From: a virus
Taxonomy: Duplodnaviria; Caudoviricetes
Length of the DNA stretch: 43,568 nt
IMG/VR virus record: IMGVR_UViG_3300017648_000005
Location: 1 to 43,568 of that record
Reading direction: 5' to 3' (one strand)
Both the position numbers and the translations under genes were made by a program. The notes beneath the pieces are model-generated. The model had not been told where the DNA came from and searched no databases. It saw nothing but the letters and a program-made list of their open reading frames with translations. Below, piece after piece: positions 4,031-40,499 of this stretch. How positions within the stretch are numbered: position 1 is the stretch's first letter; each line of letters opens with the position of its first letter.

Positions 4031-4076
4031 TAGTTATCATTTATTGGTCAATAAACAAACCATAGAATGATAACTA
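4031..4076. other. Putative attP
   Basis: 46-bp imperfect inverted repeat with perfect outer arms TAGTTATCATT/AATGATAACTA, overlapping the integrase stop; central dinucleotide AA at 4053-4054. Confidence 0.7.
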
Positions 4077-5618
4077 CTTAATAATCCTCGGATCGATCTC
4101 CAACTTAAATTCCCCGCCTCGTTGATCGTTTCCTTTCCAGTATCGGATTTCGGCTATGACTTCTTTTAGGAACATGTTTTTCCGTTTCACGTCTTTAGAG
4201 GAGACGTAGTATTTCAGAACATTCTCCAACTTAGGCAATAGCTCGGTTTGATTCTGCTTCCGTTGGCGTTCCTGTTCTAGTTCTCCTTCCAACTTTTCGA
4301 GCTGCTTTGTCGTTTCCTCGATTCGCTCTGAAAGTGTTCGAGATCGCTCCAAGAAAATCTCCTGCGTATAGATACGCTGTTCCAATAGATCAAATTGGTT
4401 CGCCCGTTGTTCCTCATATAATTTTAATTGATCTCTCTTTTCTTGGACAAGCCTTTCTTTTAATTGTAAAGCATGCGATGTCCGGGGCTTTCGTGTCTTA
4501 ATCTCGACTTTCAAGTCCTTAATCCACGCTCGCAGGAAATTCAATACTTTATCCTCGATCAGATCGTACCGAACACTGCGGTTATCACAATGCTTATTGT
4601 TGCATTTGAGATAGAAGATTTCGTGATTCTTGGGATGACGTTTCAGAACCAATGTGAAGCCGCATTTCCCGCACTTCACGATCCCGGCCAACGCATTGAT
4701 CGGGGGATAGGCTTTTTTATTTCGTATAAGGATGTTGTTTTTCTTCTTCTCCTGGACACGAAAAAACAAATCCTCGTCAATGATGGCAGGATGCAGGCCG
4801 GGAACGTCGATGATCTTTTCTTTCGGTCTTTGTCTGATGTCGTATTTCTTATCCGGCAAATTTACCTTTTTGCGAGATTGCTTCCTAAACTGGATGCGAC
4901 CAATATAAACGGGATTCTTGAGAATTTGAAGGATGACATTGAAATTCCACGCCTTTCCGTTATACGACGGTATTTGCAGTTCATCCGTCAGCTTACGGGC
5001 AATTTCCGTCGAGCTTATACCTTCATCGTACCATTGGAACATGAGTCTGACGATATCCGCTTGTTCATTCGGTTTAAGCGTCCTCACACCGTCCTGATGG
5101 TGGATGTCGTAGCCATAGGGCGGTCGGGTGCCGATATACTTTCCTGACTCCGCAGAGATGTCACGACCCCTCTGAAGGCGTCTGGTGATCATTCTCAGCT
5201 CCTGACGAGCGAAAAGAGAGGTTATGTCAGCCTGGAATTCGTCGGATTCGTCATTGAGGTCAAGGACTTTATGCGGGGATACGATCAGGACATTGTTGGA
5301 TCGGAATGAATTCAGGATGAACCCTTGTTCCTGCATGTTCCCACGCGAGAGCCGGTCTTGATCCATGACTAATACGCCGCGTGTCGGACGTTCATTGATC
5401 CAGTCCAATAAACGCAGCATTTCCGTCCGGTCGCTCAGTCGTTCGCCGGATATGACTTCTTCGAAGATTTCCACGATATTTAATTTATGATGATTTGCGA
5501 ACTTCATTAGAACGGATTTATGTTTCGCCAGCGTTTCTCCTTCGCCGCGCAGTTCTGCTTCCAGATCGGCGCGGCTCTTGCGTAGATAGATGACGTATTC
5601 ACCTTGAGGTAGGTTCAT
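4074..5618 (-). CDS. Large serine recombinase (integrase)
   Basis: YLRKSR catalytic Ser, DRLSRG, PPYGY recombinase domain, CGKCG zinc ribbon, coiled coil. Confidence 0.95.
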   Translation of the reverse strand: MNLPQGEYVIYLRKSRADLEAELRGEGETLAKHKSVLMKFANHHKLNIVEIFEEVISGERLSDRTEMLRLLDWINERPTRGVLVMDQDRLSRGNMQEQGFILNSFRSNNVLIVSPHKVLDLNDESDEFQADITSLFARQELRMITRRLQRGRDISAESGKYIGTRPPYGYDIHHQDGVRTLKPNEQADIVRLMFQWYDEGISSTEIARKLTDELQIPSYNGKAWNFNVILQILKNPVYIGRIQFRKQSRKKVNLPDKKYDIRQRPKEKIIDVPGLHPAIIDEDLFFRVQEKKKNNILIRNKKAYPPINALAGIVKCGKCGFTLVLKRHPKNHEIFYLKCNNKHCDNRSVRYDLIEDKVLNFLRAWIKDLKVEIKTRKPRTSHALQLKERLVQEKRDQLKLYEEQRANQFDLLEQRIYTQEIFLERSRTLSERIEETTKQLEKLEGELEQERQRKQNQTELLPKLENVLKYYVSSKDVKRKNMFLKEVIAEIRYWKGNDQRGGEFKLEIDPRIIK

Positions 5619-6685: not shown

Positions 6686-6786
6686 ACTAAAAAACGACAA
6701 ACGGCAAACCTTCCGAAAGGATGGGACGCAAAACTATAGGGGCTACGGTCACTTTGACTATGCCAGCCAGGTGCCGAAAGTTTAGT
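6686..6786 (+). ncRNA. Cyclic di-GMP-I (GEMM) riboswitch aptamer
   Basis: GGCAAACC-ttcc-GAAA-ggat-GGGACGCAAA...GGGGCTACG...ATGCCAGCCAGGTGCCG matches the GEMM consensus, including the GAAA tetraloop. Confidence 0.9.
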
Positions 6787-11612: not shown

Positions 11613-12263
11613 ATGAACCTATATCAAAAACTCATCGAGGTTCGAAAAGAGGTTCCGTATTTGCAAAAGGACTCTCAAATGACACAAGGACAAAGCTATA
11701 AATACAACAGCAGCAGTCAAGTTATCGGCGCGGTGCGTAAGATGTTGGACGAATTGAACATTCTCCTTATCACCAAAATCATGGACAAGCGTGTACACAT
11801 GGACACTGTTGAATATATGGACGAGAAGCAGAAGCGCCCCAAACGAACAACAACATTTTTCACCGAGCTTGATCTTATGATGATTTGGGTTAATGGTGAC
11901 GATCCGAGCGAACAAATTGAAATCCCGTGGTACGGACAAGGCATTGACACCGCCGGGGAAAAGGGAGTCGGTAAAGCACTCACGTATGCGGAAAAAACAT
12001 TCCTGCTGAAAGAATTCAATATCGCAACGGATCAAATGGATGTTGATGCATTCCAGGATAAAGTTGAACGGACAACTGGGAAAGTCCTCGCATCAAATAC
12101 AATCGCACTTCTGAAATCCGAATGGATCGGCGCAGGCTATCAAGCAAACAAACTCAATCAGCGTGTGAAGGAATTGTATCAATGCAATGTCACTGAACTG
12201 ACAGAAGAACAAGCGGCTGAACTCCTTGGGAAAATCAAAGAGAAGAAAGGGAAGGCCTCATGA
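11613..12263 (+). CDS. ERF-family single-strand annealing protein
   Basis: GQGID...EKGVGKALTYAEKTFLLKEFNIAT motif. Confidence 0.85.
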   Translation: MNLYQKLIEVRKEVPYLQKDSQMTQGQSYKYNSSSQVIGAVRKMLDELNILLITKIMDKRVHMDTVEYMDEKQKRPKRTTTFFTELDLMMIWVNGDDPSEQIEIPWYGQGIDTAGEKGVGKALTYAEKTFLLKEFNIATDQMDVDAFQDKVERTTGKVLASNTIALLKSEWIGAGYQANKLNQRVKELYQCNVTELTEEQAAELLGKIKEKKGKAS

Positions 12264-13048
12264 AACTGACCCCGGAAAATTACTACAGTCCAGAAGCGAA
12301 TCGATATTACATGTCCGTGAGTCAGTTCAAAGATTTTCTGCAATGCGAAGCCGCAGCATTGGCAAAGTTGAACGGATGGGACGATGAAAAGAAAGATGCT
12401 TATGTATTCGGCTCATATGTTCACGCCGCAATTGAAGGGACGCTGGATCAGTTCAAGATTGATAATCCTGACATATTCAAAAAAGATGGCGACCTCAAAG
12501 CAGAATACAAAATTGCTGACAAAATGGTCAAGGCGATAATGGAAGACGAACTTTGCCGCAAAATGCTTGAAGGGGAAAAGGAAGTCATCGTGACTACGGA
12601 CTTGTTCGGAATCCCGTGGAAAGCCAAGTTAGACGTTGTATTTGTAGAAGAAGGACGATTAACCGATGTCAAAACATGCAGGTCGATTCGTGAACGCATC
12701 TGGATAGACGAAGAAAGAAGGTACGGTTCTTTTGTGGAAGCCTATAAATACCCACTACAGCTTGCGGTTTACGCGGAAATAGAAAGACTCCACAACAAAC
12801 GATTCGAAGCATTAGAACCGTTTATCGTGGCTGTCAGTAAGGAAGATGAACCTGATAAAGAAGTTATCTGTTTCGATGAATCGACATTGGCAAATGAACT
12901 CATGAAAGTTCAGCAGAAATTGCCGCGAATTGTTGCAGTAAAAGAAGGCATCGAGGAACCGACGCGCTGCGGATCATGCAGATATTGCAGGCAGACAAAG
13001 AAGGCCGGAATTGTCCATTATCTTGATCTATTGGAGGTCTCACAATGA
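12260..13048 (+). CDS. PD-(D/E)XK exonuclease (DUF3799/RecE-like)
   Basis: MSVSQFK, KAKLD, DVKT, YPLQLAVY, C-terminal CGSCRYC. Confidence 0.85.
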   Translation: MKLTPENYYSPEANRYYMSVSQFKDFLQCEAAALAKLNGWDDEKKDAYVFGSYVHAAIEGTLDQFKIDNPDIFKKDGDLKAEYKIADKMVKAIMEDELCRKMLEGEKEVIVTTDLFGIPWKAKLDVVFVEEGRLTDVKTCRSIRERIWIDEERRYGSFVEAYKYPLQLAVYAEIERLHNKRFEALEPFIVAVSKEDEPDKEVICFDESTLANELMKVQQKLPRIVAVKEGIEEPTRCGSCRYCRQTKKAGIVHYLDLLEVSQ

Positions 13049-13452
13049 TTAACCGAATCATCTTAATCGGACGCCTTACCCGCGATCCGGAACTAAGATA
13101 TACCCCGAACGGAAAGGCAACATGCACCTTTACACTTGCGGTTGAACGACCATTCTCCAACCAAAACGGAGAGAAGGAAGCCGACTTCATCCAAATCGTC
13201 ACATGGCGACAATTGGCTGAAACCTGCGCTAACTACACACGAAAGGGCCGTATGGTTGCCATCGAAGGACGAATTCAAGTACGACACTATACGCCGAGCG
13301 ATTCCGACCGTCGCGTTTATATCACCGAAGTTGTCGCAGACAACGTGCGATTCCTGGATCGTGGAGAGTCTACGAGAACGCAAGAAGCGCCCGATAACGC
13401 ACCGGCAGAAGGAAGTCCTGTTGATATAACTGACGATGATTTGCCGTTCTAG
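13045..13452 (+). CDS. ssb: Single-stranded DNA-binding protein
   Basis: MINRIILIGRLTRDPELRYT...DDDLPF. Confidence 0.97.
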   Translation: MINRIILIGRLTRDPELRYTPNGKATCTFTLAVERPFSNQNGEKEADFIQIVTWRQLAETCANYTRKGRMVAIEGRIQVRHYTPSDSDRRVYITEVVADNVRFLDRGESTRTQEAPDNAPAEGSPVDITDDDLPF

Positions 13453-13463
13453 GAGGTTCACCC

Positions 13464-13781
13464 ATGCTACCCTTTAACCCTTACCCAAAAAGCGTGCAAC
13501 TCTACAATAACCGTCAGAAGCTCACACGTCGTCAGAGAAGCGAACTAACACCTAAAGAAGATAAGAGACTCAAGGATCGATCAGGCGGCATATGCGAGAA
13601 ATGTAAGCGTCTGAGGGCAGTAGAACGGGCACATATCGAAAGGCGATGGAAGTCGGAACGAAGACCAACAGCAGAGGATTTCGTCCACTTATGCAAAGGG
13701 TGTCATATATATTGTGACGGATCGGCAGAAGGTAGGAAATGGTTATGGGAATTTCAATCTAGTTTGGTAGGGAGAGTATAA
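13464..13781 (+). CDS. HNH-like endonuclease
   Basis: CEKC...AHI...LCKGCH. Confidence 0.75.
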   Translation: MLPFNPYPKSVQLYNNRQKLTRRQRSELTPKEDKRLKDRSGGICEKCKRLRAVERAHIERRWKSERRPTAEDFVHLCKGCHIYCDGSAEGRKWLWEFQSSLVGRV

Positions 13782-13808
13782 AGACTCTCCCCCAAGCCCC
13801 TAACTCTA

Positions 13809-13845
13809 CGGCTACCGCTACGCTAAGCGGATTCGGCCGAATCGA
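13809..13845 (-). repeat. Family-A cassette-boundary repeat, copy 1 (inverted)
   Basis: Reverse complement is 34/37 identical to 20489-20525. Confidence 0.9.
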
Positions 13846-13873
13846 TGGCGGCAAAGCCGCAAAAGACGAAGGA

Positions 13874-14194
13874 GTGAGCATGATGCCAATAGTTAAAAAC
13901 GAGAATACCACGCAGTTAGAATTCGGTCACGGCGATATAGAAGTTGCCCCTGCACTCTTACAAAACGACGAGGTGATTGGTGCCGTGTGTTTCTTCCGGC
14001 GCAAGCACGCAAACCCGATTGGAGAGCGCGGTGACTTTGAGCCTAATATGGTCGTGGAGATGGAACATACACCTGTCCGCATGACTTTCGAAAAGATTGA
14101 ATCGATTGATGTGATTATAGACGCATTGGAGAAAACGCGGCGCATGATGGTAGAACGCATGACCAAAGGCTTCGAGACGACCGAATCCACCTAG
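13874..14194 (+). CDS. Hypothetical protein flanked by inverted family-A repeats
   Basis: AAGGAG RBS; stop codon lies inside copy 2. Confidence 0.75.
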   Translation: MSMMPIVKNENTTQLEFGHGDIEVAPALLQNDEVIGAVCFFRRKHANPIGERGDFEPNMVVEMEHTPVRMTFEKIESIDVIIDALEKTRRMMVERMTKGFETTEST

Positions 14195-14210
14195 CCGAAG
14201 GCGGGGGCCG
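14172..14210 (+). repeat. Family-A repeat, copy 2
   Basis: TCGAGACGACCGAATCC...GGGGGCCG. Confidence 0.8.
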
Positions 14211-14269
14211 TATAAGGGGACTCTACCCTAATAGTCAGTAGATCCATATTGCGAAGGAGGCATTTTGAA

Positions 14270-14443
14270 ATGGATTATAGCGAAATTGCTGAACGGTTAG
14301 AAGAAATAGCTGACGTATCTGACATGAATGATCTATTCCATCCTCAACAATACCACAGAAAGGGATTAGCTCGAATTGATACGGAAAGCGCCCAAGCCCT
14401 CCGGGAAGCCGCAAAAATTTTGAGAGAAAACAATGGGGGTTGA
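14270..14443 (+). CDS. Hypothetical protein
   Basis: AAGGAGG RBS. Confidence 0.6.
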   Translation: MDYSEIAERLEEIADVSDMNDLFHPQQYHRKGLARIDTESAQALREAAKILRENNGG

Positions 14444-14445
14444 GG

Positions 14446-14658
14446 ATGAAAAAAGGCATATTCACAGAATGCGGATGGGTTGCAGAAGTGAAGATTTTGG
14501 AAGATAAATCGGATCACGAGTGGGAGCGATATGCCCTAGAAGTGGTGCAAACAAAGCAAGAAAGCCCTATGTTCAAAACACCAAAAAATGGTCATACATT
14601 CGAAGTTTCCGCGCAAAGGAAGTATAGGGCATATGTAGACTGGAGTATAACGGTTTAA
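14446..14658 (+). CDS. Hypothetical protein
   Basis: Operon context. Confidence 0.65.
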   Translation: MKKGIFTECGWVAEVKILEDKSDHEWERYALEVVQTKQESPMFKTPKNGHTFEVSAQRKYRAYVDWSITV

Positions 14659-14707
14659 TGCGCAGTACGAACATTATACGACGAACTCAGGGGTACATAC
14701 TCCCCTA
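14657..14707 (+). repeat. Family-B dif-like direct repeat, copy 1
   Basis: AATGCGCAGTA-CGAACA-TTATACGACGA then ACTCAGGGG..TACTCCCCTA. Confidence 0.85.
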
Positions 14708-14738
14708 ACCCTATACAGCAAAGGAAGGAGAGATTGAG

Positions 14739-15068
14739 TTGTTACAAGAAATCAGGGACTCTTTCATGTGGGGAAAGGTAAATTTGGATCGAGGATTAGA
14801 CAACCTTGATGACGAGCAGATTGAATGGCTTATCAAACAGGCTGAAAAAGTTGCTTTGCTTGAATCCAGTTTGAAGGTTTACAAGGAAGAGTCAGATATG
14901 TACGAAAGATCGACGCACATTGAGGATTTCATGTACGAGATAAACGTGAATGAAAAAGGCGAGATCCCATGTCTTATAAAGGCAAATGGAGTTGAACATT
15001 CATTCGGAATCACCAAAAAGGATGCACTGAGTTTTGTTCATCTATTTCGAATGCATGAAATGGATTAG
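14739..15068 (+). CDS. Hypothetical protein between family-B repeats
   Basis: AAGGAG RBS; TTG start. Confidence 0.7.
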   Translation: MLQEIRDSFMWGKVNLDRGLDNLDDEQIEWLIKQAEKVALLESSLKVYKEESDMYERSTHIEDFMYEINVNEKGEIPCLIKANGVEHSFGITKKDALSFVHLFRMHEMD

Positions 15069-15070
15069 AT

Positions 15071-15118
15071 GTTGCACAGTTCGAACATTTTGCGACGAAC
15101 TCAGGGGGTACTCCCCTA
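15071..15118 (+). repeat. Family-B dif-like direct repeat, copy 2
   Basis: GTTGCACAGTT-CGAACA-TTTTGCGACGA then ACTCAGGGGGTACTCCCCTA. Confidence 0.85.
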
Positions 15119-15138
15119 TAAGGAGGGAACAAAGGGAA

Positions 15139-15453
15139 ATGGAACTCGGTGACAAAGTCACATTCGACCGATATGTGAAGCGTAACAACGCAAGTGTTGT
15201 CTTGAGTGACGATGATATTGAACTTCCATATGAACTAATCCGCATTGATGAAATATCGCTGCCCGAACCGATAACAGGCATCATCTGTGGCAAGCGCAGG
15301 GTCGTAAAATCTACTACGTTCTCATTCGGTGATTTTTATAGCGACGGATACCATCAGGAAAGCAAGGAGATTCAAGTATATCTTGTAGCCACTCGCATGG
15401 ACGGATTCTATCGCGTACCGGTGGAGTGGGTGAAGGAGGGAACAAAGGGATGA
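15139..15453 (+). CDS. Hypothetical protein
   Basis: RBS; operon context. Confidence 0.65.
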   Translation: MELGDKVTFDRYVKRNNASVVLSDDDIELPYELIRIDEISLPEPITGIICGKRRVVKSTTFSFGDFYSDGYHQESKEIQVYLVATRMDGFYRVPVEWVKEGTKG

Positions 15454-15881
15454 GCAATAACTTGATCTGCCGAGAATGCGGAATGACCATTAAACCGAAA
15501 GAGTTTCACCCCTACGAATTCTGCATCTTGTGGAAGAATGGACAGGATCCAAGGGAGTTGTATCAGCGGATTATACAACGCCAATCGTCCGATAAGCAGG
15601 AGGAAATCCAGCGTCTGCGGGCGGCATTGGAGGAAATCAAGAGTTTCCCTTATCTGCATCCGAACGATGATACGCGCACAATTCAGAGGATTGCCGACGA
15701 AGCCCTCACACAACCGGCAACGCATCAGATGGAAATAGAAAACATCAAACAACTTCTACAAGCTTGGAATTTCCGCAGTATAGCAGAACAGTTGGAAAGC
15801 TATGAACAGGGGGTTGTTGTTGAGTTAGTGGAGTTGTGTGAAAAGCTGGTTGGCGTGCGGGAAGGAGAAGAGAACGAATGA
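15450..15881 (+). CDS. Hypothetical protein
   Basis: ATGA coupling; CREC...HPYEFC. Confidence 0.65.
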   Translation: MSNNLICRECGMTIKPKEFHPYEFCILWKNGQDPRELYQRIIQRQSSDKQEEIQRLRAALEEIKSFPYLHPNDDTRTIQRIADEALTQPATHQMEIENIKQLLQAWNFRSIAEQLESYEQGVVVELVELCEKLVGVREGEENE

Positions 15882-16177
15882 TTAAATTGACTGGGACAAG
15901 CGGAACTGTAGTTTATATCAATCCGGATAAGATTATTGCCTTCAATGAGGATGACGGTAAAACGTTCATCGAGTATGGTAACGACCGTTATATTGTCACA
16001 GAACCAGCTGCCGAAGTCGCTCGTAAGGTGTTGGAGTATCGGTTGGCTGTGGAACGATATAAAGCCGCATATGCAGAAGAAGTTGTCCGTTATGAGAACC
16101 GCTCATTTATAACCGATGAAGTCAACTACGCAAAACGGGAACTAAAGGAACTTGCCGGATTGGAGGATCAAGCATGA
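15878..16177 (+). CDS. FlbD-like small protein
   Basis: MIKLT...YINPDKI...YIVTE pattern of the FlbD family. Confidence 0.6.
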   Translation: MIKLTGTSGTVVYINPDKIIAFNEDDGKTFIEYGNDRYIVTEPAAEVARKVLEYRLAVERYKAAYAEEVVRYENRSFITDEVNYAKRELKELAGLEDQA

Positions 16178-16262
16178 CCCATGAAAGTGATTGGGGAATG
16201 AAACTCTATGATCGCATCTACTATCTACCTATGGCGATAAGGTTTTGGATCAAAGCCTTATT

Positions 16263-16299
16263 CGGCCCCCGCTGACGCTGGGTAATTCGGTCGATTCGA
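16263..16299 (-). repeat. Family-A repeat, copy 3 (inverted)
   Basis: Reverse complement TCGAATCGACCGAAT...GGGGGCCG. Confidence 0.8.
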
Positions 16300-16319
16300 A
16301 GCAAAAACTAAAGGAGCGA

Positions 16320-16838
16320 ATGAAGATGATTCAATGTTTCAAAATGAAAAAAGGTACCGAGTACGCAAAAGCAGTGGAACAATACTTCGAACTTCGTCCC
16401 AAATGGAAAGGTGTCTTTCAACGTTTGAATGATTATCTCGGAGAGAATATCAAATCTATGCGACTTGATCCAGCAATATTAGAGATCGAAACTAATGATC
16501 TTACGAAAGAAGAAAACAAAAAACTCTTCACCAAAGACGGGCGATTGAAGAAAAACAGTAATGAAGCGAAGGAGCTTGGAAAAATATATAAATCCATCAT
16601 AAGTGACTTAGGATTGTCTATTTTCAAAAGCCTCTCCTATATCAATTTCTGTTACGGGGTTATGAGAATGAGCGGGGAAGAATTGGAGAGTTATACAGAT
16701 GATGACGGAGTCATTTATTTCAAAGCCGACTTTGACTTGGTAAAACGTTCGGGGAATGCAGTAGAGCCGATTACAGAAATTGAATATCAGGAACACTATT
16801 TGGAACTTATCAAAAACAAATCGGCAATAAGGGGTTAA
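16320..16838 (+). CDS. Hypothetical protein
   Basis: AAGGAG RBS just after family-A copy 3. Confidence 0.75.
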   Translation: MKMIQCFKMKKGTEYAKAVEQYFELRPKWKGVFQRLNDYLGENIKSMRLDPAILEIETNDLTKEENKKLFTKDGRLKKNSNEAKELGKIYKSIISDLGLSIFKSLSYINFCYGVMRMSGEELESYTDDDGVIYFKADFDLVKRSGNAVEPITEIEYQEHYLELIKNKSAIRG

Positions 16839-17062
16839 TACTTCTTATGGAGCAAATGACCATTGACGATATCCCGACAAAGCGATTCCCGAATCAGCGA
16901 GATGTGGGCTTTAAGTTCAAAATCAATGGCAATCCCATGGAAATCATCATTTCCAATGCATCTATGATGGTTATTTATGACATACGGAAAGAAAAGATTC
17001 ACCCACTTCGATTCGTAGAATAACGGGGCATATCCTGCCCCTTCAGGTAAAGGAGGGTAGAT

Positions 17063-17929
17063 ATGGCAGAAATCAAGTGGATCAAAATCACAACGGATAT
17101 GTTCGAGGACGAGAAAATCGACTTCATCTCAAGCTTACCTGAATCTGATGCAATCATCGTGATATGGATTCGTCTTCTCACATTAGCCGGGAAATGCAAT
17201 GCCGGGGGATATGTATTCTTGACCGAGAAAATCCCGTATACCGACGAAATGCTGGCTCATAAATTCAAAAAGCCATTGAATATTATCAAACTCGCGCTAG
17301 ATACATTCCGAAGGCTGGACATGATCGAGATGGACGAAAAGGGAATATACCTTCAAAACTGGGAGAAACATCAGAATTTCGAAGCCCTCGAAGCTTATCG
17401 AGAGCGTGAGCGGATTCGTAAGCAAGAATACCGTCAAAAGAAACGTTTGGAATTGTCCGGGACAAGTCCGGGACAGTCCCACAAAAATCCGCGCCTAGAT
17501 ATAGATATAGAAAAAGAATATGAAGAAGATTTAAGAAAGCCTGGAATCCTCGATGCTCATTATCAAGCATTCAAAAAATGGAACATGACATCAGCGATGG
17601 ATGATTATGTGAGAAACCTTAGAAACCGTGGTGTTCCTGAGGAATTTATCGTCGAAGTCATCTTAGAAATGGGTGAACGAGGGATCAGCCCGAACGTCAA
17701 GTACATGGTTAAAGTAGCGGAGGATTGGTTGAGTAAAGGCATCAAGAACAGAGAAGAAGCAAAAGCCTACAGCGAACGCTTGAAATCCAAAGTATCGCCT
17801 ATCAACAAGAACGGATCGAGTAGCAAACCCAAAATGCCCGTACACAAACCAAATAAAAGCACAGTCACAGATGAAGAATACGATGCCATATTACGCAAAA
17901 TCCGTGAGGCTGAGGCGTCAAATCAGTGA
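17063..17929 (+). CDS. Replication initiator (replisome organizer, DnaD-like C-terminal domain)
   Basis: MAEIKWIKITTDMFEDEKI N-terminus; YMVKVAEDWLSKGI motif. Confidence 0.9.
   Translation: MAEIKWIKITTDMFEDEKIDFISSLPESDAIIVIWIRLLTLAGKCNAGGYVFLTEKIPYTDEMLAHKFKKPLNIIKLALDTFRRLDMIEMDEKGIYLQNWEKHQNFEALEAYRERERIRKQEYRQKKRLELSGTSPGQSHKNPRLDIDIEKEYEEDLRKPGILDAHYQAFKKWNMTSAMDDYVRNLRNRGVPEEFIVEVILEMGERGISPNVKYMVKVAEDWLSKGIKNREEAKAYSERLKSKVSPINKNGSSSKPKMPVHKPNKSTVTDEEYDAILRKIREAEASNQ
17455..17510. other. Putative replication origin (iterons)
   Basis: GTCCGGGACA x2 plus GTCCCACA and ATATAG repeats inside initiator gene. Confidence 0.6.
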
Positions 17930-17972
17930 GCTGGAATCAAGTCAAGAAGTGGGAAATAGGGGAGGGAAAGGC

Positions 17973-18788
17973 ATGTTGACCTTCTACGATGCGTTTCACG
18001 GTATCGGAGGATTTAGATACGGATTAGAACAAGCTGGCATGAAATGTATCGGAGGCTGCGAGATTGATAAATATGCTTGTAAAGCATACGGGGTGATTAA
18101 CAATGAGCGATGCGAACCAACTGACATTAGACATGTGGATGCCGGAAGCCTTCCAAGCTTCGACTGTCTCGTTTTCGGATGGCCTTGCCAAGATAATTCC
18201 ATTGCTGGAAAGCGAAATGGACAACGAGAAGGAACTCGAAGCGGCCTATTGTTTGAAGCAGCTCGAATATTACGGGTTAAACAGCCCAAGTATTTTATCG
18301 CTGAAAACGTACCAGGTCTGTTTTCCGTCAATGACGGAATCGACTTCTACAAAACAATTCGACTGTTCACCGACTTGGGGTATGACTGTCAATGGCAAGT
18401 ACTTAATTCAAGGTGGTTTCTCCCCCACAATCGAGAGCGGATTTTCTTTGTCGGACATCTTGGAAGATTATCCAGACCAAGAGTATTTCCTTTCACTGAA
18501 CAGCATTGGATTTCTGGCGAATCACGCAGGGAAGAGGGGGCGATATCTCCTTGTTTACGAGCAAAGTTGGGGGGGGCTGATATCGAAGAAGTTTACGTCA
18601 TCGACCCAAATCGAGGAGTACGCCGCGCAACAATCTTGGAGCGTTTCCGTCTCCAAGGCTACCCAGACGAATGGTACTACAAATGCAAAGAAGCCGGCAT
18701 AAGCAAAACACAACTTAGTAAAATGGCAGGCAATGGAGTTAGTAGTCCAGTTGCAAGAGAAATCGGGAAAAGGTTGGTTGCATCATAA
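17973..18788 (+). CDS. DNA (cytosine-5) methyltransferase
   Basis: FHGIGG, GWPCQ, ENV, RERIF, GNGV motifs. Confidence 0.92.
   Translation: MLTFYDAFHGIGGFRYGLEQAGMKCIGGCEIDKYACKAYGVINNERCEPTDIRHVDAGSLPSFDCLVFGWPCQDNSIAGKRNGQREGTRSGLLFEAARILRVKQPKYFIAENVPGLFSVNDGIDFYKTIRLFTDLGYDCQWQVLNSRWFLPHNRERIFFVGHLGRLSRPRVFPFTEQHWISGESRREEGAISPCLRAKLGGADIEEVYVIDPNRGVRRATILERFRLQGYPDEWYYKCKEAGISKTQLSKMAGNGVSSPVAREIGKRLVAS
18103..18702 (+). CDS. Nested alternative-frame ORF resembling an M.EcoHK31I beta-type subunit
   Basis: 199 aa in shifted frame; GGGGTGA RBS; WGM..NG and SLSDILE..PD.EYFLS motifs. Confidence 0.6.
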   Translation: MSDANQLTLDMWMPEAFQASTVSFSDGLAKIIPLLESEMDNEKELEAAYCLKQLEYYGLNSPSILSLKTYQVCFPSMTESTSTKQFDCSPTWGMTVNGKYLIQGGFSPTIESGFSLSDILEDYPDQEYFLSLNSIGFLANHAGKRGRYLLVYEQSWGGLISKKFTSSTQIEEYAAQQSWSVSVSKATQTNGTTNAKKPA

Positions 18789-18811
18789 TTTTTATGGAGA
18801 GGAGCAATCAC

Positions 18812-19051
18812 ATGACACCCAAACAAGAAAACGAACTCTACGAAAGCTGGTTCAGCCTATATCCAGAAATCATGAACGATATCAAACACCGAGACATTGA
18901 CCAATTACAACATCGACTATTGCGAATCTATAACGAATGCGTGATGTTCGGCGTGCCGTGTAGAGCTGCAGAAGCGTTTTTGAGGGAACGGGCATGGGAA
19001 TTAGGCGTAACCTTTACCCCACCGAGTCGAACGCGAAGGAAAGCGGGGTGA
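18812..19051 (+). CDS. Hypothetical protein
   Basis: GAGGAG RBS. Confidence 0.6.
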   Translation: MTPKQENELYESWFSLYPEIMNDIKHRDIDQLQHRLLRIYNECVMFGVPCRAAEAFLRERAWELGVTFTPPSRTRRKAG

Positions 19052-19055
19052 GGAT

Positions 19056-19262
19056 GTGAGAGAGAAGATCGAACAGGTGATTAAGGAGTTGGAAGAACTC
19101 GAATCAGCTTCCGAAAGACTTGCAAGCATGTCGATTGATGACTACGACGTAGGAAGGCATGCAGGAAGATCAAATGCATATCGAATCGCAATTACCAAAC
19201 TCAATGCCATCATCGCAGAAGACCGTACCGCAGAAGCCGAGGAAACGAGGTGTAGAGGGTGA
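19056..19262 (+). CDS. Hypothetical protein
   Basis: Operon context. Confidence 0.55.
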   Translation: MREKIEQVIKELEELESASERLASMSIDDYDVGRHAGRSNAYRIAITKLNAIIAEDRTAEAEETRCRG

Positions 19263-19618
19263 AACTGATCATACCAGGACGACCAGTACCAGCAGTAAGG
19301 ATGACACAACGAAGCAAGTATAAAAGCAAGCAGGCGCAGCGATACCTTGACTATAAAGAGCAGATCGGATGGACAGCAAAAGCAGCAGGAGCACTACCAA
19401 GACATTCGCCATATGAAGTCACCGCAACCGTCTATATTGACCGAAAAAAGCCTGACATGGACGTTGATAACCTAGCAAAAGCATTTTTGGACGGACTGAA
19501 CACAATCGCGTGGCATGACGATCGGCAAGTGGTACTGCTGCACGTTAAGAAAATCTATGTCAACGGCGAAGAGGAATGTGCCGAAATCGAAATCAATGAG
19601 TTAGGAGGGATCGTATGA
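19259..19618 (+). CDS. rusA: RusA-family Holliday junction resolvase
   Basis: DVDNLAKAFLDGLN...WHDDRQV. Confidence 0.92.
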   Translation: MKLIIPGRPVPAVRMTQRSKYKSKQAQRYLDYKEQIGWTAKAAGALPRHSPYEVTATVYIDRKKPDMDVDNLAKAFLDGLNTIAWHDDRQVVLLHVKKIYVNGEEECAEIEINELGGIV

Positions 19619-19949
19619 AATGTTCTAAATGCGGGAAGTCAATGGTATTTGTTGTATCGAACAACGGAACGGAAGGAAAGTATATGTGCTTGAATGAAAA
19701 AAATGTTCAAGCGGAGGATGTGAATGAAAGGAGTGATAAAAATGCGCAAGATAGCACATTGGATAGATCGACCCCATTATAGTATCGCAGAAAATATAGA
19801 GGGAAAACCAGTAGGGGTTTTAATGCCGATAGAATCGTGCGAAAACAAAGCATTACCATTCAGGGGTACGAATACAAGTGGAGACCCGCCAAAGGGTGCA
19901 TAACCCCCTAGTAACACCTATCAAAAAACCTAACATGGAGGGTATTAGC

Positions 19950-20216
19950 ATGGCCTATTCACGCGATGAATACGAAACGACCTGCAATTATGATTATCTG
20001 ACCAAAACATGGGACGTGTACACGAGCGTTCCGACGCACATCACGAAGCTGTCGAAAATGAGCGAACCTTACTGGAAGGAGGAAGAACCGGACGTACACG
20101 GTAATCCGCGAATGATCGCGGGGAAATGGCGACTATCGAAAAGCCAAGTGCGATTTGCAAAGCTGATGGCGGTAAAAGCCGACGATGACGATGAAGCCGA
20201 AGAAGAAAGCGCATGA
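19950..20216 (+). CDS. Hypothetical protein
   Basis: GGAGG RBS; ETT..YD...W.VYT motif. Confidence 0.65.
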   Translation: MAYSRDEYETTCNYDYLTKTWDVYTSVPTHITKLSKMSEPYWKEEEPDVHGNPRMIAGKWRLSKSQVRFAKLMAVKADDDDEAEEESA

Positions 20217-20250
20217 GCAGGGAATATGCTTGGGAGGGGGTGAAAGAGGG

Positions 20251-20511
20251 ATGTTAGAAGTGGAATGGGATGATAACATTAATTGTTTTTGGTATGGCGC
20301 CAATGGTTGTGAATATATCGCATGGAAAGGATCTCATCATGTGTTCGTATTTCCTACATGGGAATATCCGAAACCGCCAAGCGAAATCATCCAACATAAC
20401 ACACGGATTGAAACGGTAGAAGAGTTTGAAAAAGCACTAGAGATGGGAGAGCGCATGAAAGTAACTTATGAACGCATGAATAGCAGCATCGAATCGACCG
20501 AATCCGCTTAG
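20251..20511 (+). CDS. Hypothetical protein (cassette-like)
   Basis: Ends in TESA* encoded by family-A copy 4. Confidence 0.7.
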   Translation: MLEVEWDDNINCFWYGANGCEYIAWKGSHHVFVFPTWEYPKPPSEIIQHNTRIETVEEFEKALEMGERMKVTYERMNSSIESTESA

Positions 20512-20525
20512 CGAAGCGGTAGCCG
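20489..20525 (+). repeat. Family-A repeat, copy 4
   Basis: TCGAATCGACCGAATCCGCTTAGCGAAGCGGTAGCCG. Confidence 0.92.
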
Positions 20526-20554
20526 AAAAATGATTGAAAGGGGTGAAAGAGGGG

Positions 20555-20773
20555 ATGAAAAAAGCAAAAGTAACGGTGACAATCACAAGGATTATTAATC
20601 TTGATCCAGACATCTTTAATTACTTGGAAAATGCCACGCCAGAAGCAATGTTGGCAGAGGAAATTCGGTATGCCGAGGATTTTCCGCATGATTGGATGGA
20701 AGAAAATAATGTGCAATGGAAAACAACAGGTGAGATTATCGAGGAAAACTCCGATCCGACCGAATCCGCTTAG
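20555..20773 (+). CDS. Hypothetical protein (cassette-like)
   Basis: Ends in TESA* encoded by family-A copy 5. Confidence 0.7.
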   Translation: MKKAKVTVTITRIINLDPDIFNYLENATPEAMLAEEIRYAEDFPHDWMEENNVQWKTTGEIIEENSDPTESA

Positions 20774-20787
20774 CGAAGCGGTAGCCG
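20751..20787 (+). repeat. Family-A repeat, copy 5
   Basis: Last 31 nt identical to copy 4. Confidence 0.92.
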
Positions 20788-20865
20788 ACAAAGGGCAGCT
20801 ATGATAATATAGTCATAGACATAACCTATGGACGGAACAAATATTATAGTTTGGAGTGATAAAGA

Positions 20866-21867
20866 GTGAATGAAAAATTAAGCTACAACGAAGCAATCGC
20901 ATTAGGACTTACAGAACTTTACCGTCGTCGTGACGAAATGGCCGATACGGGTGAAATCGACCCGAGCAATTGGAACACGATCCAGAACGCCATATCGCAC
21001 CTGGAGAGCCAACAGGCGAATGAGCAGGCGGCAGAAGAACGTCAACAGAAGCAAGCGGAACAAATCGATAAGCTACTGGCCGAGATTCAAGAAACAAACC
21101 CATTCGGCAAAATGTTTCCCAAGGAGACATTTGAAGAGTTGTTCGGCCCCAACGAATACACCGTTATGCAACAACAACTGCACCAGTTTATCTACGGATG
21201 CATCGTAGACGGCCAAAAATCGCTCGAAAAGCTATACAAAGACGAATTGGACCAGAAAAACGAGCAAATCCGCAAACTAACCAACGAAATCAAAGTTGCC
21301 GAAAATCAAATTGCCGAATTTATCGATCAACTCGCCACGTCGAATACAAATCTACAGCTCGCAAAGGAAGAGTTGAAAGAAGTATACCGAGAAAATAAGC
21401 AACTGAAAGATGAAGTCCGCGTCAAAGGCGAAGAAATCGCAAAGTTATCGGACAAACTGAAAGATCGTGATGAGCCGAATGTAGATACGGAAGGCGGCAT
21501 CCAAGAACGCGCTGGAAGTCTGAAACCGTTCGACGTTGATGCTATGATCGCACGATTCAATTCACGGCAGAAAGAAGATGAACATAAGGTGCCGATTGCA
21601 ATCCCGACGTTTGGGGGTGAGCCTGAAGGCGCATCGTTTCGTGAGGAAACTACTGAATCTGAGTCTGGAAACAGTGGGGTTTCTGCTACCGAAACGACTG
21701 AGGTAACGTTTCAGGAATCCACCGATAGTTCATCTTTCGGGCTATCTGAGAGTGCAGAGACGGATGATAGAGGAATGGGAACGGTCACGCGGGAAGAGTT
21801 TGAAGCGGCGTTGAAACGCATTGATCGGCTGGAAGAACGGGCAAATATTAATCGGGAGGTAGCGTAA
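20866..21867 (+). CDS. Coiled-coil protein with acidic C-terminal region
   Basis: 333-aa ORF; heptad pattern. Confidence 0.75.
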   Translation: MNEKLSYNEAIALGLTELYRRRDEMADTGEIDPSNWNTIQNAISHLESQQANEQAAEERQQKQAEQIDKLLAEIQETNPFGKMFPKETFEELFGPNEYTVMQQQLHQFIYGCIVDGQKSLEKLYKDELDQKNEQIRKLTNEIKVAENQIAEFIDQLATSNTNLQLAKEELKEVYRENKQLKDEVRVKGEEIAKLSDKLKDRDEPNVDTEGGIQERAGSLKPFDVDAMIARFNSRQKEDEHKVPIAIPTFGGEPEGASFREETTESESGNSGVSATETTEVTFQESTDSSSFGLSESAETDDRGMGTVTREEFEAALKRIDRLEERANINREVA

Positions 21868-21868
21868 A

Positions 21869-22090
21869 ATGGACGAGAAGATTCTTGAAGGAATGCGCGA
21901 ATGCGTCAAGGTACAAGGATACGATGGAAATTGGAACTATGATCCGTATATGCAGGGCATGTACAACGGTATGGAACTTATGCTTGCAATTGTCGAAGGT
22001 CACCAACCAGAGTACAAGGAAGCACCAGAAGAATGGAGAAAAGACATGCACAAGGTCGAAAAACCGGTAGCGCAGGAATCGGCATCTTAA
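21869..22090 (+). CDS. Conserved-looking phage protein
   Basis: GNWNYDPYMQGMYNGMEL; GGAGG RBS. Confidence 0.7.
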   Translation: MDEKILEGMRECVKVQGYDGNWNYDPYMQGMYNGMELMLAIVEGHQPEYKEAPEEWRKDMHKVEKPVAQESAS

Positions 22091-22110
22091 CACAAAGGAG
22101 GGCGTTCGGC

Positions 22111-22548
22111 ATGGATAGACTCAAAAGCTATCGCGATTTATGCAAAGAAATCGAACTTTGGGAAATCCGCTTATGGGACTTGGAAGGCGAACGTCGGTTA
22201 CTTATGAAGCAAATGATGAATCCCCCACAGGTCAAATTGTGTGCGAATTACAGCGGCATGCCGGGAGCTGGGGCACGGATCATCGACCTACCCAAAGCAT
22301 GGACGCAGATGCAGGATATCGAACAGCGGATCGGGGAATGTAAGGACGTGCTAAGTCTCAAGCGTGAAACCAAGCGACGCATGGAAAAGGTGCTGAGTGA
22401 GTTTGAAAGCTTGGAATATCGTGTCGCCTATATGCGGGATGTGGAGCAAAAGCCGTTGTACAAGATCGCCGAGGAAATGGGATACTCTTACGATTGGATT
22501 CGGCGTATTAGTTCAAGATTGCGCAGATTGGAGAAAATCCCCTCATGA
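22111..22548 (+). CDS. ArpU/RinA-like late transcriptional activator
   Basis: C-terminal sigma4-like HTH (KIAEEMGYSYDWIRRI); precedes packaging genes. Confidence 0.8.
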   Translation: MDRLKSYRDLCKEIELWEIRLWDLEGERRLLMKQMMNPPQVKLCANYSGMPGAGARIIDLPKAWTQMQDIEQRIGECKDVLSLKRETKRRMEKVLSEFESLEYRVAYMRDVEQKPLYKIAEEMGYSYDWIRRISSRLRRLEKIPS

Positions 22549-22562
22549 CGAGGGGGTTTTTT
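22534..22562. terminator. Bidirectional intrinsic terminator
   Basis: AAAATCCCCTC/GAGGGGGTTTTTT between convergent genes. Confidence 0.75.
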
Positions 22563-22577
22563 AGTCGTTCAGATATT

Positions 22578-22760
22578 TCATTTCTTTCGCCAGTGATCGG
22601 GATACGATGGATTAGGTTGCTCCTTTGCCAATATCCACGTCTTACCGATTAACCTCGCAACCACCTTGCCATTCCTGCACAGACGTTTGATATGGTCTTG
22701 GGTGAGACCCCAACGTTCGGCAGCCTCTTCCGTTCCCATGATTTGATCGAGTGGATTCAA
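22578..22760 (-). CDS. Small HTH DNA-binding protein (Aca-like autorepressor candidate)
   Basis: GTEEAAERWGLTQDHIKRLC...GKTWI excisionase-like HTH; AAGGAGG RBS. Confidence 0.8.
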   Translation of the reverse strand: MNPLDQIMGTEEAAERWGLTQDHIKRLCRNGKVVARLIGKTWILAKEQPNPSYPDHWRKK

Positions 22761-22783
22761 TATATCGCCTCCTTGCTGACTGA

Positions 22784-23215
22784 TTAAAATATTTTCGCGA
22801 TCACAACTGCATCTTTGATTAGGATTTCTCCCGGATCGGGATTATCATGATGTCCAACGCGGGTTCCTGCGATCACGTAGCAGTGGTATGAATTAAACAG
22901 CCCCACTAATGAATACTTATTGTCAGATTCACTCGGACGACCACTGCCCCAACCAGGGTAAAACTCGTCGTTGTACTCATACGGAGACATATCCCATGCA
23001 CTCGTGCCATCCAGTTCCGGAAGTTCGTCATACTCTTCCGTACCAAACTCGGGAAATTCCCGCTCGTCTTCCCGTTCAGGATTATGCTTGCTCCACTCGC
23101 ATTCCTCGCCGATTACACGCTCTCTATCCTCGAACCGCAATCCAATGTACCGATATTTCCCTTCGTTCTCGGCGTAGACCGATTTGACCCTTTCATACAT
23201 TTCAGTGACGTTCAT
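22784..23215 (-). CDS. Acidic hypothetical protein (anti-defence candidate)
   Basis: AAGGAGG RBS; about 32 D/E vs 15 K/R; own promoter. Confidence 0.8.
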   Translation of the reverse strand: MNVTEMYERVKSVYAENEGKYRYIGLRFEDRERVIGEECEWSKHNPEREDEREFPEFGTEEYDELPELDGTSAWDMSPYEYNDEFYPGWGSGRPSESDNKYSLVGLFNSYHCYVIAGTRVGHHDNPDPGEILIKDAVVIAKIF

Positions 23216-23235
23216 TTCGTATTCCTCCTTGGTAT

Positions 23236-23289
23236 GCCCGATATCGGACTTGTTGATTACAATATATCACGCCCGATAACGGGCGTCAA
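23236..23289 (-). promoter_or_regulatory. Promoter with two palindromic operators
   Basis: TTGACG-17bp-TATATT; ACGCCCG-TTAT-CGGGCGT over the spacer; GTCCGATATCGGGC downstream. Confidence 0.85.
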
Positions 23290-23312
23290 TAGGGTTTTAA
23301 AAGTTTTTTTCA

Positions 23313-23357
23313 TCGATCCGACCGAATCAGCTCAGGGAACGGATTGACCGGGGGCCG
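23313..23357 (+). repeat. Family-A repeat, copy 6
   Basis: TCGATCCGACCGAATC...GGGGGCCG with longer inner segment. Confidence 0.75.
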
Positions 23358-35663: not shown

Positions 35664-36254
35664 ATGATTAAGACTAAAAAAGATTATCTGTTTTATGTTC
35701 AAGCAGACATGGCTTCATTCAAGGTAGATAAGTGGAAGCGAAGCTTAAAATACAAACACCCCACCTTGTATTTTCAACTGATCATGCGGAAAGTGGAATA
35801 TTTAAAAAGCCAGAAGAGTCAATTTTGGTGCCGGTTGCTTCTCAAATACTATCAACACAAGATGCTAAAAGTCGGTATTAATCTCGGATTGACGATTTAC
35901 CCAAACACCTTCGGACCCGGGCTTAAAATCTCGCACTACGGCAGTATCGTTGTAAACGGAAAGGTGAGAGTGGGGAAAAACTGCACGATTCATTCCTCGA
36001 CTAATATCGGACAGTACAAGGGGAAGGTTCCAAAGATCGGGCACAACGTGTACATCGGTCCTGGTGCGAAAATTTATGGTGAAATCACAATTGGCAATAA
36101 TGTGACGATCGGAGCTAATTCGGTTGTGAATAAAGACGTTCCTGACAATGTTACCGTAGCTGGGGTTCCGGCAAAGATAATTGGTGAAGGACCCGCTGTA
36201 AGGGGCCCTAGGGGAGCAGATATCGTTAGAAAACGTATGAACAGCACCCAGTAA
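35664..36254 (+). CDS. Hexapeptide-repeat O-acetyltransferase (WcaB/CysE-like)
   Basis: IGHNVYIGPGAKIYG...IGANSVVNKDVP...AGVPAKII; terminator 36241-36268. Confidence 0.9.
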   Translation: MIKTKKDYLFYVQADMASFKVDKWKRSLKYKHPTLYFQLIMRKVEYLKSQKSQFWCRLLLKYYQHKMLKVGINLGLTIYPNTFGPGLKISHYGSIVVNGKVRVGKNCTIHSSTNIGQYKGKVPKIGHNVYIGPGAKIYGEITIGNNVTIGANSVVNKDVPDNVTVAGVPAKIIGEGPAVRGPRGADIVRKRMNSTQ

Positions 36255-39327: not shown

Positions 39328-39657
39328 TTATGGTTTTGGTTTTTGAATATTACACTCCGGATTGAGACGTTCTATTTTTGCTGCTTCTTCATAATCGCGA
39401 TTTTCTTGTCTTTCAATCACGATCCAACAAACCGACACGATATATTTTTGAACATTGTTTCTCAAGCAATCATTCGGTTCATCTTCGCGTAGATGTTCTA
39501 ACAGACGAGATCGCAAATTTTTAGCTTGCCCAACATAAATAAAGCGCCAACTTTCATCTTTAAGTTGTACTCTGATGATATAAACACCTGGACTCATCGG
39601 GACTTTTGATGTGACCTGATCTTTATTATACGGAATATACGTCGAATAACTTGCCAA
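39328..39657 (-). CDS. Stand-alone GIY-YIG nuclease
   Basis: GVYII...IYVGQAKNLRSRLLEH...E...NPECN; TTG start after AGGGGTGA. Confidence 0.85.
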   Translation of the reverse strand: MASYSTYIPYNKDQVTSKVPMSPGVYIIRVQLKDESWRFIYVGQAKNLRSRLLEHLREDEPNDCLRNNVQKYIVSVCWIVIERQENRDYEEAAKIERLNPECNIQKPKP

Positions 39658-39691
39658 AAAAATCACCCCTAAATTGAAAGGATTGAAAAAA

Positions 39692-39907
39692 ATGAAAATC
39701 AAATTTATTCTGTCTGCAATCTGGAGTATACTTACAGGGAAGGCATCCGTGGTACCGAGAACATTTACGAGGGAAGACGTGGTAGTTGGGAGGTTTTCGA
39801 TCCACACGAGTACAAATTACACAAGAATAAGCTTAAATGGTCGTGAATTCTACTTTACACCAGATGGTGAATTTGATGGGACTGGCTCTAGCCTTTGTCA
39901 TGAGTAA
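39692..39907 (+). CDS. Hypothetical protein
   Basis: AAAGGA upstream; protein-like composition. Confidence 0.45.
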   Translation: MKIKFILSAIWSILTGKASVVPRTFTREDVVVGRFSIHTSTNYTRISLNGREFYFTPDGEFDGTGSSLCHE

Positions 39908-40203: not shown

Positions 40204-40286
40204 ACCTCCTTTCTGGAGGATAGCCTTACCCACCGCAAGCTAGGTTGTACAATTACATTATACTATATTTTGGGAGAGGGTCATAT

Positions 40287-40499
40287 GTGAATATTCGTTT
40301 TACGAAGCATGCCAAATTCAGATGTATGCAACGGAAAATCCCCCAATCATGGGTAAGCGAACTGATAAAGGACATTCCCTATTATGAAGGGATATATAAT
40401 AGGATAAAGATAGACGGAACAAATTTAATAGTTGTATATCAGGACAGAAATGGTGTGAGGAATATCGTAACCCTTCACGCTGGTACACGAAAGAAATAA
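40287..40499 (+). CDS. DUF4258-like (RelE/BrnT-fold) protein
   Basis: FTKHAKFRCMQRKI...IVVY...IVTLH; terminator 40498-40519. Confidence 0.65.
   Translation: MNIRFTKHAKFRCMQRKIPQSWVSELIKDIPYYEGIYNRIKIDGTNLIVVYQDRNGVRNIVTLHAGTRKK

Follow-up and report, generated by a model that had tools for sequence, protein, structure and literature searches.

An apparently undescribed family of gene-swap sites in Paenibacillaceae prophages

Temperate phages gain and replace accessory genes, and whether short-homology or illegitimate recombination accounts for this is still argued. The virus record IMGVR_UViG_3300017648_000005 raises the question of whether defined sites take part. The window analysed here is this one record, a stretch of 43,568 bases with a terminal repeat of 123 nt, and is a temperate tailed phage from soil. 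Six dispersed copies of a short repeat, here called family A, lie close to small accessory genes, each with its TCG end toward the gene and its CGGC end away from it. The first-pass annotation had proposed that the copies are attC-like, structure-specific sites for capturing and shuffling cargo genes, using a recombinase encoded elsewhere. We find that they belong to a real, apparently undescribed family of phage gene-swap sites, which resembles attC in some respects and departs from it in others.

The six repeats were found at the places and in the orientations originally described. The family-A pattern matched the window six times and matched none of 100 shuffles, and a covariance model based on 70 members of the family, the 14170 copy among them, scored the six at 43.5 to 60.2 bits, with the next window match at 13.2 bits. 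The strand quoted for each site is the one carrying its GNA loop. Site 1 (13809..13847, -, GTA triloop, 56.4 bits) and site 3 (16263..16301, -, GTCA tetraloop, 60.2 bits, without a close partner site) are of the gene-start type. Site 2 (14170..14210, +, GAA triloop, 57.1 bits), site 4 (20487..20525, +, GAA triloop, 59.1 bits), and site 5 (20749..20787, +, core the same as that of site 4, 49.8 bits) are of the gene-end type. Site 6 (23311..23357, +, 43.5 bits) has a long imperfect inner arm, and its TCG end points toward the promoter of a two-gene moron. As first reported, the three gene-end copies give the upstream proteins their stops (after TEST, TESA, and TESA; the stop in site 2 is TAG), and the other three precede genes, with the start codon 33, 41, and 104 nt downstream of the repeat's 9-mer.

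We collected further copies by scanning viral, genome, and metagenome contigs and by whole-genome searches. Early scans returned mostly chance matches in high-GC DNA; only loci below a GC cut-off of 0.52 to 0.60, depending on the script, were kept, and up to three recurring look-alikes were removed by motif from later site collections. After the GC filter, the collection held at least 250 full copies, at least 246 of them distinct, and at least 24 short ones, all copy counts from contig scans being lower bounds. Nearly all of the family lies in early regions of Paenibacillaceae (Paenibacillus-type) prophages, and 18 of 20 mapped regions were prophage early regions. A whole-genome pattern search gave matches in 51 of 401 Paenibacillaceae genomes, one to six in each, part of them coding look-alikes that were removed, and the reversed control gave 4 matches; the covariance model found at most 8 matches per host genome. 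All genomes matched by the pattern across the class Bacilli (7 of 401) were ones that the family sample already contained, and the covariance model outside the family reached at most 26 bits, with three weak matches that on inspection were unlike family copies. The literature searched, which included few subscription papers, held no description of the family-A repeat; other inverted repeats are described in Brevibacillus phages, in the accessible portion of PMC4909266.

Family-A sites mark points where related phages differ in accessory genes. Gene neighbours were compared over 1,048 co-directional junctions: where a site intervened, the partner was never retained (0 of 80 comparisons), versus 224 of 890 at siteless junctions. 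For genes shorter than 200 aa, the counts were 0 of 64 and 100 of 610, respectively. The two sides of a site also differ. A homolog within the set was present for 32 of 110 TCG-side genes versus 53 of 110 CGGC-side genes. Among 187 sites, 30 pairs had just the CGGC-side flank in common, 1 pair just that on the TCG side, and 2 pairs had both (83, 10, and 12, respectively, under a looser flank test); these pairs cluster and hence are not independent, and the loci were chosen for bearing sites. Cargoes include DNA methylases, PAPS-reductase-like and radical SAM genes, and many orphan genes. One-sided events occur as well: in four groups of empty and filled alleles, the insertion starts at the TCG end and its far end is siteless.

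Neighbouring sites within 1.6 kb (n = 41) face inward in 24 cases, run in the same direction in 10, and stand back-to-back in 7, an excess of inward pairs over the expected 0.25 (p 5e-6). Among 46 inward pairs, six slots have both flanks in common, both sites kept, and unrelated cargo in between, and a seventh qualifies when the flank window is shorter. Together with the junction counts, these six swapped slots bear out the idea that synteny breakpoints fall at the sites. None of the six was inverted, and the contents of inward pairs are replaced, so the inversion or excision suggested earlier is not supported as the main event. Three homologous cargoes lie between inward pairs whose flanks are unrelated. 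Five slot ends have identical cores, and there the matching sequence runs 0, 0, 1, 0, and 1 nt beyond the 9-mer; six of the other seven share just 4 to 9 nt counted from CGGC. These two stopping positions may correspond to the two feet of the basal stem proposed below. As judged from the aligned alleles, the site is fixed on the backbone while the TCG-side DNA is replaced, and inward pairs exchange whole cargoes of 0.3 to 1.3 kb.

The partner sites of a pair resemble each other no more than background, and pairing of partners with each other was rejected. Distinct left and right site types were also rejected, as the two ends were not separable. Four sequencing runs, available as contigs only at a depth of ~10 or less, contained no inversion or circle joints, which carries no weight either way. 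Some pairs are unusually tight: the inward pair at L734:1368-1510 has only 72 nt between its sites and no gene, and the back-to-back pairs at L378:3001-3110 and L237:6006-6135 are 44 and 62 nt apart.

What do the copies have in common? Read on the CGACCGAAT strand, a site consists of an optional second hairpin, C-W-N-CG, a 2- to 5-nt spacer, CGACC, GAAT, 2 to 3 nt, C-Y-Y-A, a variable hairpin of 2 to 6 bp, and G-G-N-R-GCCG. The terminal C and the CG are invariant in alignment A1 and are kept over the 2- to 5-nt spacer, a constancy for which plain annealing would presumably not select. Pairing in the inner helix amounts to 97.5%, with 29 compensatory cells, a result reached by 0 of 500 shuffles; on the CGACCGAAT strand each Y-G pair of this helix reads C-G or T-G. 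T-R-R was present in 200 of 207 copies under a control pattern that left it free. One unpaired A is invariant, and the bulge is 6 to 8 nt versus 1 nt.

The loop of the variable hairpin is strand specific. GNA or GNNA loops occur on the CGACCGAAT strand in 199 of 220 copies (148 of 166 triloops and 51 of 54 tetraloops, with 1 and 0 G..A loops, respectively, on the opposite strand), and the loop sequence was absent from every search pattern. Only 11 of the 54 tetraloops are GNRA. At least 246 copies carry 86 distinct hairpins; with each distinct hairpin counted once, 51 of 68 have G..A loops on this strand versus 1 on the other. The bias is equal in gene-start copies, in which the strand is the template (39 of 44), and in gene-end copies, in which it is the coding strand (88 of 98). 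Mini-hairpins of the GCGNAGC/GCGNNAGC type are reported to be stabler as DNA than as RNA, to be poorly bound by single-stranded DNA-binding protein (SSB), and to resist 3' exonuclease (PMC13037366, in part), and the terminal structures of attC bottom strands, which are the recombining ones, mostly contain GAA (PMC5027507, in part). Because the GNA loops keep their strand irrespective of transcription, and because of these parallels with DNA-favoured mini-hairpins and attC, we infer that the element is single-stranded DNA and that its strand is the opposite of the one first chosen. The CGGC strand had been proposed as the folding strand; the outer stem does pair better there, but the inner hairpin favours the other strand. 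None of the 8 terminator-like predictions overlaps a site, Rfam gave no match to the sites, and one marginal promoter-like match begins at the final bases of site 5. Given the constant loop strand and the terminator result, the sites have the appearance of structured single-stranded DNA and not of terminators or RNA elements.

The collection also holds variants. Short copies without the entire inner hairpin number at least 24 (L144:5285, L126:6655, and L337:2772 among them), and one short-variant slot nonetheless shows several differing cargoes. At L675:118-200, a copy truncated right after ATTC is followed by a complete copy, and copies at L665:1387 and L683:909 have the left end duplicated; all three are possible recombination scars. 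The two mapped regions outside prophage early regions (L489:10065 and L490:10254) each have a single copy 16 nt past the pyrD stop in a host chromosome. The genes beyond these copies differ, and a pyrD-adjacent copy is absent in 16 other genomes.

How might such a site work? The repeats mark gene-swap slots of Paenibacillaceae temperate phages, and we put at about even the chances that they work as single-stranded DNA sites that fold and are then cut at the stem foot by an enzyme supplied in trans. The CGACCGAAT strand would fold into a basal stem, the GAAT bulge, a short stem from which one A is flipped out, and the variable GNA mini-hairpin, which would resist SSB. The enzyme, coming from elsewhere, would then cut the folded stem at its foot. 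If exchange took place at the inner foot, the hairpin would stay with the backbone; if at the outer foot, it would move along with the cargo. More tentatively, the family may be a natural, non-integron form of cassette exchange, in which a phage gene pool is shared via inward-facing folded single-stranded sites, a recombinase cuts at either foot and swaps the whole cargo without inversion or deletion, and attC-like GNA hairpins have been reached independently.

Besides the dependence among flank pairs and the choice of loci, several observations weigh against the proposal of folded sites cut in trans. In 69 of 70 rows, the basal stem includes an A-C mismatch when read on the favoured CGACCGAAT strand. 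Folding energies tie between the strands as DNA (92 versus 90) and as RNA prefer the strand opposite CGACCGAAT (133 versus 52). Neither strand of a single window copy folds better than shuffles do (all absolute z values below 1), and therefore the structural case depends on the family. In one-sided swaps (8 same-core pairs), the end of identity varies between -10 and +4 relative to the terminal G, and some insertions begin beyond the second hairpin. A cut at the edge of the invariant 9-mer would look no different from an exchange anywhere within it, so these data do not fix where the cut falls. Of the six copies in the window, just two make up a close inward pair, and homologs of the 104-aa cargo between that pair in four Paenibacillaceae genomes are without sites (0 of 4); therefore the genes are not permanent cassettes.

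The search for an enzyme weighs on the same side. The window encodes a serine integrase (4074-5618, from PHROGs and Pfam scans), and scans of the window's open reading frames (ORFs; sets of 48, 58, and a few more) against both databases were negative for tyrosine recombinases, HUH proteins, and reverse transcriptases; the claim that a cassette recombinase is not encoded here thus stands. Tyrosine and HUH recombinases had been named as co-occurring enzymes to look for. Y1 transposases were absent from all 48 site-bearing viral records and from the 102 ORFs adjoining or near sites, host chromosomes not having been searched for Y1. Tyrosine recombinases occurred in 20 of the 48 records, mostly integrase-sized at ~400 aa, and the 26 tyrosine recombinase genes had no site within ~1.5 kb. 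The integron integrase model (TIGR02249) matched in 0 of 251 Paenibacillaceae host genomes, in a search without a matching positive control. A chromosomal array with its own integrase was also considered and rejected, none being present among the mapped match loci.

Short-homology recombination is the serious, main rival and forecasts the same junctions. The sites would then be passive boundaries: the invariant boxes would supply short homology for phage exonuclease and Erf/Sak annealing, the hairpins would shield donor 3' ends, an inward pair placing a GNA hairpin at the 3' end of each strand, and no dedicated recombinase would be needed. The window does encode the machinery, an Erf-like annealing protein, an exonuclease, and SSB (11613..13452, +), with no connection to the sites demonstrated, and ERF and Rad52/22 genes are present in other site-bearing loci. 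The empty enzyme searches also fit, as do the scattered junctions of one-sided swaps, whose far ends rejoin at short A-tracts. Phage mosaicism is reported to be driven by Rad52-like recombinases (PMC3945230, in part), and mini-hairpins withstand 3' exonuclease (PMC13037366). However, unrelated copies share only ~9 nt plus 4 to 5 nt, split by variable spacers and 86 hairpins, whereas linkers driven by homology should come under pressure toward identity, and partner sites are no more similar than background. Bases that stay invariant across spacers of variable length are also less well accounted for. On balance we think this account unlikely, if a real contender.

Two further readings fit worse than either the folded sites cut in trans or the annealing rival. 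The sites could be the ends of a non-autonomous mobile element, similar to a miniature inverted-repeat transposable element (MITE) or REPIN, with the enclosed gene moved as a unit by a host transposase. The over-representation of inward pairs would fit, as would the 7 of 12 slot ends with different cores, as if the site arrived with the cargo, the lone pyrD-adjacent copies of two chromosomes, the duplicated left ends, and the one truncated copy. Yet among the matches listed there is neither a clean empty allele with joined flanks and both sites absent nor a target duplication at the CGGC end, copies per host genome number 1 to 8 rather than hundreds, no Y1 transposase accompanies the sites in the 48 viral records, and identical cores remain with the backbone; we consider this improbable. 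Just as improbable, in our judgment, is that the hairpin does a job outside recombination, serving as a signal for primase or for single-strand initiation, as a hairpin promoter, or as an RNA element, and that breakpoints reflect its intergenic position only. Mini-hairpins are known from the origin of phage G4, from ssiA of plasmids, and from N4 promoters (PMC13037366), the outer stem as RNA pairs better on the CGGC strand, and there is the promoter-like match at site 5. Against this, the sites occur in both orientations to transcription (54 gene-start and 127 gene-end) with the loop strand unchanged, the terminator and Rfam results are negative, and site junctions are broken more often than siteless ones.

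Compared with known systems, family A resembles an attC terminal structure combined with a PeSL-like role. As in attC sites, a hairpin of varying sequence has a GAA-type loop and G-T pairs on one strand (PMC5027507), and the invariant unpaired A may correspond to the extrahelical bases that attC sites have near an L-box, next to a roughly symmetric unpaired spacer; as in attC sites and phage clusters of attC sites lacking an integrase (CALINs), copies sit tight against small cargo genes, often supplying the stop, with no adjacent enzyme (PMC5027507, PMC9892861). Membership in attC is contradicted by the R-box (RYYYAAC/GTTRRRY, as described in the available part of PMC5027507), present in 0 of 250 full family copies, and by the arrangement, which is in both orientations with inward pairs prevailing rather than in the co-oriented arrays of integrons and CALINs. 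The family-A bulge is also strongly asymmetric and unlike an R-box, spacer, and L-box, and in gene-end copies the GAA strand is the coding strand. Phage CALINs are true attC sites, and the accessible text of PMC9892861 does not mention Bacillus, Paenibacillus, or Firmicutes. The promoter early stem-loop (PeSL) cassettes of T4-type phages likewise have short stem-loop repeats in a variable region where accessory genes are inserted, deleted, and replaced; a PeSL, however, is a unit of sigma-70 promoter and terminator stem-loop (PMC2839356, in part), whereas family A has no terminator match and one marginal promoter overlap. Family A also occurs in both orientations and has DNA-type loops. Mini-circles are a further trait of PeSL cassettes; for family A, the four low-depth contig sets contained none.

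REP/REPIN elements and TIRtrons, which go with Y1 transposases (RAYT/TIRYT), are similarly short, structured intergenic repeats in inverted pairs, likely read single-stranded. TIRtrons require a linked Y1 gene (PMC3733652, in part). Unlike them, family A is prophage restricted and low in copy number, its pairs enclose genes, and it has no GTAG/CGTC tag. Boundary or linker sequences of temperate phages with Rad52-like recombination are likewise conserved short sequences at module borders in phages that encode an annealing protein (PMC3945230). The linkers of lambdoid phages are of this kind as well. Family A, by contrast, keeps a fold with only ~15 invariant bases and variable spacers instead of continuous homology. 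In family A, moreover, the 11-6-11 double-stranded dyad of pdif/Xer modules is absent, spacer and arm lengths vary, and the ends are not distinct types. Both those modules and engineered recombinase-mediated cassette exchange place inverted site pairs around exchangeable genes. In IS200/IS605 ends, a guide tetranucleotide pairs with the cleavage site; we rejected a guide of this type for family A, as five rows with an altered last GAAT base retain the A at the predicted partner (judged by eye).

The family offers a defined 40-nt element, ~250 natural variants, and mapped swap points, so that the question of how accessory genes are exchanged becomes testable in one system. If a structure-reading enzyme were found, this would be a second single-stranded DNA cassette system beside the integron, categorically new, and possibly a cassette-exchange tool for Gram-positive bacteria.

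Within the window, the inward pair encloses the one gene that, as first noted, has a site at each end (13880..14194, +; 104 aa; PHROG 31900, function unknown); its stop lies within site 2, and a second hairpin (13848-13860) stands directly beyond site 1. The 104-aa protein has no relative among the viral contigs. The outer flank of this slot is an HNH-like gene (13464..13781, +), which is followed by a gene-start site in 5 of 25 listed homologs with differing cargo; none of the four cargoes checked is related to that of the window. On the TCG side of site 3 lies an orphan gene (16326..16838, +; 170 aa) with a GC content of ~37% versus ~45% for the backbone. The tandem gene-plus-site array at 20251-20787 is present as described: an 86-aa orphan gene (20251..20511, +) ends within site 4, and a 72-aa orphan gene (20555..20773, +) lies between sites 4 and 5, which are direct repeats. 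Site 6 adjoins the moron (22539..23289, -), made up of two helix-turn-helix genes (143 and 60 aa) with their own promoter-like (23261-23289) and terminator-like (22539-22556) matches. A moron of a related kind follows a family-A site in L341 and L146, and L419 is the empty allele of the L341 slot.

Other repeats lie nearby. A 3' tail of ~20 nt (repeat D3) is common to two unrelated cargo genes before their sites (14153-14172 and 20470-20489), as if transferred along with the site. Short G-run/C-run hairpins stand between early genes (13770-13797, 14690-14705, 15102-15115, and 17025-17041), some adjoining copies of family A or of a second repeat, family B. Two direct 35-nt copies of family B (14659-14693 and 15073-15107) bracket a 109-aa ORF (14739-15068) and contain a dyad that we take to be dif/lox-like. 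No further copy was found in 229 loci or, as an exact pattern, in the viral contigs, and on this ground family B was rejected as a partner site of family A.

The window also encodes repressors, a DnaD-like initiator, a methylase, and RusA, followed by terminase and structural genes. Its host is likely a member of the Paenibacillaceae, since the repeat and cargo homologs occur there. Annotated phages and plasmids gave chance matches only when searched with one site copy, and matches confined to the SSB region when compared with window positions 13400-16400. In the immunity region, a c-di-GMP-I riboswitch aptamer (6693-6778, +; 72 bits) is followed by a T-run; it is antisense to the minus-strand genes around it and has no obvious downstream gene. 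The tail region contains a GIY-YIG nuclease gene (39328-39807, -) and a DUF4258 gene (40245-40499, +). A 196-aa gene after the tail spike (35664-36254, +) matched only PHROGs without known function and resembles a hexapeptide-repeat acetyltransferase.

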